DNA from: a virus
Lineage: Duplodnaviria > Heunggongvirae > Uroviricota > Caudoviricetes
DNA length: 20,158 nucleotides
IMG/VR virus record: IMGVR_UViG_3300031760_000027
Span: 1-20,158 of that record
Direction: 5' to 3' (one strand)
Positions 5,023 to 7,262 of the stretch are shown piece by piece (the first letter of the stretch is position 1; every line of letters begins with the position of its first letter). The notes under the pieces were generated by a model. The model ran no database searches. It was not told where the DNA came from and saw nothing but the letters and a program-made list of their open reading frames with translations. Both the position numbers and the translations under genes were made by a program.

Positions 5023-5058
5023 AATAATTATAAAATTTTAATGAAAGGAGATAACGAT

Positions 5059-5847
5059 ATGTCTTTCAAATTAGGAGATTTTATTGTTGATAGAATCCAG
5101 ATGGCTACAGCGGAAACTACAGATGGTTCTGAACTGCTGTATGTTCTGACACAGCTTTCTGACGCTTCTATTGAAGTTACTGCGGAATCTAAAGATGCTG
5201 TTGATGCTGAAGGTAACTTAATTAAGAGATTCTGGCAAGCAAAAACAGGTACATTCACAGCTACCAATGCTATGCTTAACCTGAATGTTCTTGGAGCGAA
5301 ATCTGGTAATGACCCTTATATGGCTACTAATGATAATATTATTAATATGCCTAAGATTGTTGTGACTAAAGCCTCTGATAAAACTGTTAACATCCCTGAT
5401 GCTGTTACTGGTTCTATTGTAGTTAATGCTTTTACTAATGATGGTTCTCTTGGTAAAGCTTATACAATTGGTTCTGCGGCTAGTGAAACAGAATTTGCTG
5501 TTTCTGGTACAACTCTGACTCTGCCTACAGATACTTCTAATACTGAAAAGTATATTATTAAGTATGAAAGAAAGGTTAGTGATGGTGTTCGTATTGTTAA
5601 TACAGCAGGTAACTATCCTAAGACTGTTAAACTGACACTTAAAGCTGTTGGTGTAACTCCTTGTGAGCCTGATGTACTGACTGCGCTTTATATTGTCCTT
5701 CCTTCCTTCCAACCTAGCCCTGAAACCACTATTAATCTGACAACTGATGGTCAGCTTGACTTTAATGGTGATTTACAGATTGGTTACTGTGGTGATGAAA
5801 AGGTTCTGTATGAAATCTTTGCCGCCGCTGATGACGAAGAAGAGTAA
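5059..5847 (+). CDS. Major tail (tube) protein
   Basis: RBS AAAGGAG at 5044-5050 favours ATG 5059 over 5041 (262 aa). Thr/Ala/Val-rich beta protein with the same highly expressed codon bias as the capsid gene. Followed by an intrinsic terminator. Ends ...TTDGQLDFNGDLQIGYCGDEKVLYEI. Confidence 0.75.
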   Translation: MSFKLGDFIVDRIQMATAETTDGSELLYVLTQLSDASIEVTAESKDAVDAEGNLIKRFWQAKTGTFTATNAMLNLNVLGAKSGNDPYMATNDNIINMPKIVVTKASDKTVNIPDAVTGSIVVNAFTNDGSLGKAYTIGSAASETEFAVSGTTLTLPTDTSNTEKYIIKYERKVSDGVRIVNTAGNYPKTVKLTLKAVGVTPCEPDVLTALYIVLPSFQPSPETTINLTTDGQLDFNGDLQIGYCGDEKVLYEIFAAADDEEE

Positions 5848-5868
5848 TTTTTAATTTAATTTTAATTA

Positions 5869-5902
5869 GGGAAAGTGGGCTTCAAAACCCACTTTCTTTT
5901 TT
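5869..5902 (+). terminator. Rho-independent terminator after the major tail gene
   Basis: Stem GAAAGTGGG (5871-5879) / CCCACTTTC (5888-5896), 8-nt loop CTTCAAAA, then a T run at 5897-5902. Confidence 0.85.
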
Positions 5903-5906
5903 CTAT

Positions 5907-5924
5907 AGCCATAATATTATGGCT
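5907..5924. promoter_or_regulatory. Perfect 18-bp palindrome (operator or second hairpin)
   Basis: AGCCATAATATTATGGCT is its own reverse complement. It lies between the terminator and the RBS of the 5965 gene. Confidence 0.45.
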
Positions 5925-5964
5925 TTATTTTAATTTTATATGAATTACAAGGAGAAATAATATT

Positions 5965-6447: not shown

Positions 6448-6498
6448 TTTTTAGTATTGCATATTAATTTAATGCGTTGAATAGTGATTTTAATATAT

Positions 6499-6539
6499 GG
6501 GGAGTATAGCCTACTATTCAAGGCTATACTCCCTTTTTT
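6499..6539 (+). terminator. Strong intrinsic terminator with a loop complementary to upstream sequence
   Basis: GGGAGTATAGCC (6500-6511) / GGCTATACTCCC (6522-6533) form a perfect 12-bp stem around loop TACTATTCAA, followed by TTTTTT (6534-6539). Confidence 0.85.
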
Positions 6540-6554
6540 GTTTTAGGAGGAAAA

Positions 6555-6776
6555 ATGAAAATTGAATCTAATATAAGCAATAAAATTTATCATCCAAGTG
6601 AAGTTGTAAGAATTGTTAATTTACGACAACTTTTAATGTATATTAAACATCATGTTTATCCTATAGATTTATATACTAGTTTAGATGATTATGATAGGGA
6701 TGTGTTAGTAGGGGTATTTTTAAAAAAAGATACAGAAGAAGTATATGAACAATGGTGCAATCATAAATTGAGGTAA
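6555..6776 (+). CDS. Small conserved phage protein (resembles DUF5659-type proteins; unverified)
   Basis: RBS AGGAGG at 6545-6550. 73 aa with pattern IVNLRQLLMYIKHHVYPIDLY...VGVFLKKDTEEVYEQW, recalled as DUF5659-like and not checked by search. Confidence 0.55.
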   Translation: MKIESNISNKIYHPSEVVRIVNLRQLLMYIKHHVYPIDLYTSLDDYDRDVLVGVFLKKDTEEVYEQWCNHKLR

Positions 6777-6782
6777 TAAATT

Positions 6783-7262
6783 ATGGAGTGTAAATTAATG
6801 TCAATAGATTCTTCTACTAATGCTACAGGATATGCTTTTTTTATAAATGGAGTTCTTAAATCTTATTCTACATGTGATTATAGTTATATAAAAAATACGC
6901 AAAAAAGAATTGATAATATGATACTATTTATATGTGAAATGATTGAAAATGAACGTCCAGACATTGTAGTAACAGAATTAACTGTTGTAAATAGAAATGC
7001 TGAAGCACAACGAAATCTTACAATAATACTTGGGGCTATACGTTATAAATGCTTAGAATTAAAAATTGAATATCATTCTTTAAGACCCACGGAATGGAGA
7101 AAATTAATAAAAAATAAAGATGAAAAAATTCCAAGAAAAAGAGAAGAATTAAAAAAATGGTCTATAAATAAAATAAAAGAAAATTATAATATAGAAACTC
7201 ATTCAGATGATTTATCTGATGCTATATTAATTGGTCAAGGATATATTAATAGTTTTAATTAA
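6783..7262 (+). CDS. ruvC: RuvC-like Holliday junction resolvase
   Basis: RNase H-fold motifs: SIDSSTNATGYA (catalytic Asp), PDIVVTE (Glu), LRPTEWRK, and C-terminal DDLSDAILIG (two Asp), matching the RuvC family layout. Confidence 0.8.
   Translation: MECKLMSIDSSTNATGYAFFINGVLKSYSTCDYSYIKNTQKRIDNMILFICEMIENERPDIVVTELTVVNRNAEAQRNLTIILGAIRYKCLELKIEYHSLRPTEWRKLIKNKDEKIPRKREELKKWSINKIKENYNIETHSDDLSDAILIGQGYINSFN

Follow-up and report, generated by a model that had tools for sequence, protein, structure and literature searches.

The stretch of DNA analysed here (the window, 20,158 nucleotides) is the first part of an 84-kb IMG/VR contig with an estimated completeness of 53%. All genes from position 267 to about 58.9 kb of the contig lie on the + strand. 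A tail tube gene is followed by two small terminators, an ORF of 160 residues, the RNA element that is the subject of this work, an ORF of 73 residues, a RuvC-like resolvase gene, YomO-/YomN-like genes and a giant tape-measure gene (Table 1). No Pfam or PHROG family matched the 160-aa ORF, and the gene order is maintained in distant relatives. The gene for the RuvC-like Holliday junction resolvase (6783-7262), between the 73-aa and YomO-like genes, sits at an odd spot for a DNA-processing enzyme, within a tail module. At 55720-58371 of G000 (L026:1720-4371), an endolysin gene with GH25, CHAP and SH3 domains is split by an intein carrying a LAGLIDADG domain.

Table 1. Features of the locus, from the tail tube gene to the conserved 73-aa gene; positions are those of the window.
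Feature	Position	Strand	Remarks
Tail tube gene	5041-5847	+	Tube gene of relatives matches YomU_Tube
Two tandem terminator-like hairpins	5868-5924		Right after the tail tube gene; neither loop has an upstream complement
Upstream ORF, 160 aa	5965-6447	+	Gene after the tail tube gene; element at its 3' end
Clade-specific spacer, stop codon to box	6448-6476	+	Contains UAGUAUUG (6452-6459) and G6474/C6475
a-box UUGAAUAGUGAUUU	6477-6490	+	6477-6486 form the 5' strand (a) of the alternative (putative antiterminator) helix
Box-terminator linker	6487-6499	+	Length and sequence variable across relatives (alignment A4)
Terminator 5' arm (b)	6500-6511	+	Sequence differs between lineages, complementarity stays
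Terminator loop = a', 3' strand of the alternative helix	6512-6521	+	G6523/C6524 able to join
Terminator 3' arm (b')	6522-6533	+	Variants in close relatives: only C6524U and an added C
U-tract TTTTTTGTTTT	6534-6544	+	Runs straight into AGGAGG
RBS AGGAGG (6545-6550) and conserved 73-aa gene (6555-6776, ATG at 6555)	6545-6776	+	

The 107-nt intergenic region that separates the 160-aa and 73-aa ORFs has a predicted folding energy of -28.8 kcal/mol (z = -3.7 relative to shuffled sequences), and its centroid is dominated by a single hairpin of about -25 kcal/mol (range -24 to -26.5). The stem (6500-6511/6522-6533) consists of 12 perfect pairs and can be extended to 14 pairs with an 8-nt loop and 7 G-C. 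As expected of an intrinsic terminator, the G+C-rich stem-loop is followed at once by a U-tract. The upstream segment UUGAAUAGUG (that is, TTGAATAGTG, 6477-6486) is complementary to the loop TACTATTCAA (6512-6521), with nine Watson-Crick pairs and the wobble pair G6486.U6512; the pairing of a 10-mer with the whole loop, which a preliminary description had pointed out, was thereby confirmed from the sequence, coordinates included. In folds of the growing transcript, C6475-G6523 and G6474-C6524 lengthen the alternative helix (a/a') into the 3' arm, beyond a G.G mismatch.

A full complement of the 10-nt loop arises in about 0.2% of shuffles of the 51 nt upstream. Some ten terminator-like hairpins are found in the 84-kb genome piece, and only at the element is the whole loop matched upstream; the 9-mer is not a repeated genomic motif in that piece. 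By themselves the shuffle and genome counts are suggestive and short of conclusive.

The preliminary description had also stated that the terminator leaves no room for a promoter before the next gene. A consensus scan found no sigma-70-type promoter-like site on the + strand from the terminator stem to the start codon. Two + strand candidates picked out by eye, TTGCAT-17-AATAGT and TAATAT, were discarded: they have a poor -10 or -35 element, are absent from the scan output and are not conserved in relatives. A programmed frameshift or readthrough signal at the upstream stop codon was ruled out by the tandem in-frame stops, the full terminator and the downstream gene's own RBS.

DNA and protein searches of GenBank phages matched neither the region nor the 73-aa protein, and gave only distant matches to the resolvase. 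The exact stem pattern was present in a single close relative in IMG/VR, and word-based protein searches returned near-identical relatives only. The family was opened by HMMER, an exhaustive search yielding 118 remote homologues of the 73-aa protein in metagenomes. Loci were gathered through this flanking protein, blind to the RNA, from three single look-ups, 80 + 80 IMG/VR loci, 80 metagenome loci and one Clostridia metagenome-assembled genome (MAG); the best 80 loci per scan were taken from 192 IMG/VR and 101 metagenome relatives detected.

Two clades share the same locus, one with an identical 73-aa protein and the other with 88% identity. Between them, the 105 aligned intergenic bases show no substitution, and the only differences are three single-nucleotide indels, each in a homopolymer run. 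Divergence is 11% in the flanking ORFs (16-22% at third codon positions), and the adjoining spacer, 5848-5964, shows 8 substitutions plus 17 columns with gaps. The hairpin variants seen in close relatives preserve or lengthen the stem, as C6524U makes a G.U pair and the added C one more pair. On this comparison the whole spacer 6448-6554 is constrained, and relatives this close are unable to show covariation.

Across the wider collection, 214 of 222 loci checked, corresponding to 96 distinct sequences, have the a-box and a terminator with a complementary apex. The nearly invariant box UUGAAUAGUGAUUU is followed 16-94 nt later by a hairpin and U-tract whose apex reads (U/C)ACUAUUCAA or a variant thereof, and this arrangement is conserved down to proteins of about 45% identity. 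Among the eight loci that failed the automated a-box search, L067, L069 and L352 have an insertion after the terminator, and for the L067 contig the element was located further upstream (L191). The extra DNA in these three loci lies between the terminator and the 73-aa gene, upstream of position 1501. L392 and L400 are too short or cut off, L400 keeping the terminator half only, and L391, L393 and L396 have another context and no terminator. L157 passes the a-box search and is devoid of a'. A few sequences (L027, L048, L183, L328) contain an internal mismatch.

Each genome has a single copy of the element, invariably located after the gene downstream of the tail tube gene and before the conserved 73-aa gene. 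A covariance model derived from alignment A4 (66 distinct sequences) finds one copy in the window's genome (63.5 bits) and one in a complete relative of 158.7 kb; a 156-kb relative has one site, with a weak second match on the opposite strand at the same place. In 151 genomes sampled from the class of the Clostridia MAG, the model matched in that MAG only. A DNA pattern made of the two boxes matched more than 115 IMG/VR contigs, and 55 of the 80 examined have the 73-aa gene within 330 nt. The remaining 25 matches mostly lack a terminator and are apparently due to chance in coding DNA, while a few are family members that are cut off or carry an insertion. Homologues of the 73-aa protein at about 34% identity are without the element, which bounds the family and is no test of the helix. 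Metagenome contigs of 508, 273 and 274 kb (L350, L362 and L369) carry the locus; the phage genome measures 156-159 kb in two near-complete relatives. As these contigs are far longer than the phage genome, the phages may be integrated prophages; one relative is labelled 'provirus' in IMG/VR.

The alternative helix emerges from the alignments without prompting. With a plain MAFFT alignment (A4), the RNAalifold consensus is a/a', with nine pairs, two of which show compensatory changes. When eleven pairs are considered in A4, 95.7% are standard pairs, compared with 22-56% in slid registers, and none of 1000 shuffles reaches the observed pairing or covariation. An alignment made from 90 hits of the covariance model is biased in favour of the structure; in it, 97.8% of cells are paired versus 18-62% in slid registers. 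The same alignment has 13 double-change cells versus 2.2 +/- 1.3 in shuffles, and a covariation score of 0.199 versus 0.171 (0 of 500 shuffles in both cases).

Compensatory changes are found at three positions. The pair a6/a'5 is mostly U-A; C-G occurs in 11-14 distinct sequences, spread over three or more sequence contexts, and the intermediate U.G in four. The pair a7/a'4 is A-U, replaced by the intermediate G.U in L028, L152 and L154 and by G-C in L111 and L159. The pair a4/a'7 is A-U throughout, except in L381 and L383, where both sides have changed to give C-G. One-sided changes in a' are almost all compatible with wobble pairing (A-to-G opposite U, C-to-U opposite G), and the equally likely transition U-to-C opposite A is never left uncompensated. 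Mapped on a tree of the tube and 73-aa proteins, a6 changes about six times, with three independent pairs on supported branches (sign test p 0.25); with only three independent pairs, the sign test is unable to reach significance. Identical spacers in different protein clades suggest recombination, so that independent events are fewer than sequences.

The terminator stems behave differently from the apex. They vary freely between lineages and stay complementary (for instance GGGAGUAUAGCC, GGGAAUAUAACAUU and GGGGUAUGUCUC), with energies of -15 to -43 kcal/mol in 95 of 95 folded sequences. Since the stems are free to differ while remaining complementary, the conserved apex reflects more than slow regional evolution. 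Accidental complementarity, or its hitch-hiking along in a spacer that evolves slowly, is accordingly an extremely improbable account of a/a'. The shuffle probability for the window alone, about 0.002 per terminator, is modest given the many features scanned, but it is outweighed by the conservation to about 45% protein identity, by the compensatory changes and by a/a' being kept while the stems drift. Divergent flanking proteins also mean that the loci are not recent copies of one sequence.

We considered whether selection might act on a DNA-level inverted repeat, such as an operator for a dimeric protein or a set of -35-like elements, with the RNA complementarity as a by-product. The sequence of both boxes is strongly conserved, TTGAAT resembles a -35 hexamer, and a weak promoter-like match on the minus strand uses the loop copy. 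However, G.U pairs make up 91 of 785 cells (about 12%), and such pairs would not match in duplex DNA or on the other strand, which points to sense-strand RNA as the selected molecule. In L028 the RNA helix keeps nine pairs, whereas the half-sites agree as DNA in only 5 of 10 positions. The spacing of the boxes ranges from 16 to 94 nt, in contrast to the fixed spacing of an operator; the motif is present once per genome and hence no general promoter; and the spacing of the minus-strand promoter-like match is lost in relatives. We judge this explanation very improbable.

It is similarly hard to credit that the pairing is intermolecular, with the loop of a transcript binding the a-box on a second one or some other target. 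Terminator loops do serve in some sRNAs as modules that pair in trans with mRNAs (PMC11979758). Here, however, the partners are always found in cis, 16-94 nt apart and in fixed order, and a cis hairpin forms far faster than a bimolecular contact. One further copy of the 9-nt loop core exists in the 84-kb piece, in a coding gene (30979), which is about the number expected by chance. The RNA multimers that the preliminary description offered as an alternative, formed by tail-to-loop pairing, gained no support from these comparisons.

Conservation and covariation of the complementarity, which the preliminary description had proposed to test in relatives, are thus borne out: the helix is kept in about 200 phage contigs, with compensatory and wobble changes. 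We consider it highly probable that the a/a' pairing exists and is under selection.

Across the family, the contiguous helix has 8-19 bp, mostly 12-16 bp, and the segment it encloses measures 16-94 nt (median 27). The helix of the window has 10-12 bp. In most lineages it takes in 2-8 nt of one or both terminator arms next to the loop. The earlier statement that the complementarity covers exactly the loop therefore applies to the window's clade and fails for the family, where the helix enters the arms. The loop-only version of the window, together with its two G-C pairs, is the family's minimal form. L055, L066, L070, L071 and L086 (around 1420-1450 of each locus) have a loop of 16-20 nt in which a' is immediately followed by another copy of the box core. 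The upper stem of the terminator consists in these lineages of a' paired with that second copy, so that the upstream box and the internal copy compete for one strand, which is a classic alternative-pairing design.

In the window, no nucleotides separate the 5' arm from a', or a' from the 3' arm. With the order a-b-a'-b' and no linkers, the two helices are mutually exclusive, as the preliminary description had argued; the overlap with the arms in relatives reinforces this. By established pseudoknot geometry, helices of 10 bp and 12 bp without linkers cannot coexist. A stable H-type pseudoknot has linkers that span the grooves; these are missing in the window, and in most relatives a' includes stem nucleotides. 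A stable pseudoknot with both helices standing, one of the two roles first proposed for the element, is therefore unlikely in the window. Because a/a' encloses the 5' arm and leaves the 3' arm outside, every terminator pair crosses every a/a' pair, and no route is open to branch migration. A findpath barrier of about 18 kcal/mol was set aside as an artefact of the nested-structure model, in which a/a' must melt fully before any crossing pair can form; it illustrates the topology only.

Predicted folds of the growing transcript agree with the earlier proposal that a/a' can form before the 3' arm exists. For window transcripts ending at 6521-6525 (up to 6529 if the 5' end is at 6448 or 6470), the minimum-energy fold is a/a', at -8.7 to -16 kcal/mol, and the terminator fold takes over only once 6533 is present. 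With nascent RNA ending at a', a/a' is likewise the minimum-energy fold in 65 of 66 sequences. In the full-length RNA the terminator is the more stable fold, by a median of 6.4 kcal/mol. Assuming that the polymerase shields 14 nt when the transcript is released, the RNA outside it folds best as a/a' in 85 of 96 sequences; this number drops to 53, 24 and 6 if 12, 10 and 8 nt are shielded. In these models, a/a' and the terminator are in finely balanced competition. Because the terminator is always the stabler fold, the effect of a/a' would be purely kinetic unless a factor stabilises it.

We favour the explanation that the element is a cis antiterminator acting on an intrinsic terminator, and regard it as probable. 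By blocking nucleation of the hairpin, it would set, or let a factor set, the leak into the tail genes. The a-box would be made first, followed by the terminator 5' arm and the loop. On emerging, the loop would pair with the a-box (10-12 bp here, 12-16 bp in most relatives), and a/a' would thus occupy the apex, the place where the terminator hairpin nucleates. The crossing pairs and the absence of linkers would prevent the terminator from zipping by simple strand exchange for as long as a/a' stands. Part of the polymerases would then pass the U-tract and transcribe the 73-aa, resolvase-like, tail assembly and tape-measure genes, which have no promoter of their own nearby. The other polymerases would terminate, and the tube-module transcript would exceed the downstream transcript. 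We infer both the lowered termination by a/a' and the ratio of upstream to downstream expression. The attenuator reading of the preliminary description stands in so far as the excluding helix is transcribed first, overlaps the loop and both arms, is conserved and covaries.

Pairing in itself does not explain everything about the a-box. The box is far more conserved than a', which drifts by wobble changes, and since it is non-coding in several lineages, its coding capacity does not account for the conservation either. The conservation exceeds what pairing needs, and probably something else reads the box and could switch termination back on. Candidate readers are a ribosome that terminates at the adjacent stop codon, some protein, for instance the 73-aa product, or a second RNA. 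In 89 of 93 distinct sequences the stop codon of the upstream ORF is found between -15 and +8 nt relative to the box, either ahead of it or within it (there as UAG at a6-8 or, in the C variant, as UGA at a9-11). In most lineages the box would thus be covered by a ribosome terminating there, but densely packed genes could look alike, and we treat this as only a lead. In the window's clade the stop codon is 32 nt before the box, after an apparent 20-nt insertion. This insertion (in 6452-6476) parts the a-box from UAGUAUUG, a stretch that lies immediately before the box in other lineages; it can fold into a weak hairpin of 4 bp (GCAU/AUGC), and the two G-C pairs lengthening the alternative helix come from it.

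As to a sensing part, no leader ORF was found, and no Rfam aptamer in the window and six relatives. The 73-aa protein is predicted with confidence by AF2 (pLDDT 95.5) to be a small alpha/beta domain (strand, helix, strand, strand, helix). No PDB fold matched it at E <= 0.001, and no RNA-binding fold was recognised.

The complete relative G152 (IMGVR_UViG_3300021399_000109) encodes an 878-aa protein on the minus strand (64688-67324, or L316:7688-10324), at the head of the late module. It belongs to phrog_8308 ('unknown function') and matches no Pfam model. Distant tblastn matches connect it to a 925-aa CDS of Spbetavirus BUCT082 and to Enterocloster phage genes, one of which is annotated 'RNA-dependent RNA polymerase', and its GSDQDSD triad aligns with GSDFDYD of BUCT082. 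The protein is probably a YonO-type single-subunit RNA polymerase. The polymerase facing the element could be the host enzyme or the phage's YonO-type enzyme, and the main doubt about the mechanism is whether the latter would stop at this hairpin.

These considerations bear on the possibility that a/a' is selected for something other than antitermination. The helix could be a processing or stability site, for instance one where an endonuclease cuts on the 5' side of a protective hairpin; it could engage the terminator's G+C-rich base in a partial pseudoknot, which would shape or strengthen release; or it could be a protein platform, for example for the adjacent 73-aa product. In favour of such a role, the conservation of the a-box goes far beyond the needs of a pairing partner, with a' drifting by wobble changes; element and 73-aa gene are strictly linked; and lineages with 17-20-nt loops might just fit a pseudoknot. 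In addition, a YonO-like polymerase may ignore hairpin terminators (PMC5467207). On the other hand, the terminator displaces a/a' at equilibrium, so that the helix would exist mainly during transcription, when termination is decided. The overlap with both arms in most lineages amounts to competition rather than cooperation, and the 73-aa protein lacks a recognised RNA-binding fold. We regard a role outside antitermination as possible but unlikely.

More speculatively, the element may belong to a new class of switch, in which a trans factor (a ribosome at the stop codon, or the 73-aa protein) reads the a-box and decides whether the polymerase, host or YonO-type, stops. We hold this for doubtful at present. 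If it were true and the enzyme were of the YonO type, the element would be the first known termination/antitermination signal for a YonO-type RNA polymerase. The element also offers a handle on whether such polymerases obey hairpin terminators, and, under the preferred cis-antiterminator reading, a mutable handle on how phages set abundant tube-module transcripts against long downstream tail transcripts.

An Rfam search, which the preliminary description had proposed, matched no family: Rfam 15 gave no hit at E <= 1 in the window, and in six relatives only an unrelated sub-threshold match elsewhere. Very likely, judging from the sequences, the element is a previously undescribed RNA device and a new RNA family, that is, a conserved structured RNA absent from Rfam in widespread human gut and rumen phages of roughly 150-200 kb.

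The element shares its logic with the trp leader, the T-box, the BglG/SacY RAT and transcriptional riboswitch platforms. In all of them, mutually exclusive helices allow the strand made first to capture part of a terminator; the terminator is the stabler fold, the outcome is decided kinetically or by a factor, and readthrough (here predicted) serves downstream genes. In contrast to these attenuators, the upstream strand takes the loop and the top of the hairpin instead of the 5' arm, and the helices cross, which leaves no branch migration. The element also lies between genes in a phage structural operon and not in a 5' leader; it shows no recognisable aptamer, leader peptide or known protein site and matches nothing in Rfam.

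In plasmids pT181, pIP501 and pAMbeta1, attenuation is controlled by antisense RNA: an upstream 'preemptor' pairs with the terminator 5' arm and prevents termination unless it is sequestered. The conserved a-box could be a target for such sequestration. The pairing here is with the loop, whereas that of the plasmids is with the 5' arm, and no antisense RNA or ligand was identified for the element. In ZTP, fluoride and preQ1 riboswitches, as in the element, an intrinsic terminator faces co-transcriptional competition from a long-range helix in pseudoknot order. Their pseudoknot is part of a ligand aptamer, whereas the element is a plain duplex of 10-16 bp with no evident pocket; as far as the Rfam library holds these models, none gave a hit in the window or relatives.

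The processive antitermination RNAs lambda nut, HK022 put and EAR likewise act in cis, within transcripts of phages or operons, and allow polymerase to read through terminators, as predicted here. However, they modify the polymerase and act on distant terminators, whereas the element is base-paired to one adjacent terminator. Late operons of siphoviruses from Firmicutes, SPP1 among them, offer a similar setting: a hairpin terminator inside them delimits a late gene cluster and no recognisable late promoter follows (PMC6316719). The SPP1 genome paper makes no mention of a conserved upstream partner for a terminator loop (PMC6316719). Read from its sequence relationships, the element is a variation on the terminator/antiterminator theme in an unusual topology, and the terminator would be defeated in an unusual way, by seizing the loop, where the hairpin nucleates, rather than the 5' arm.
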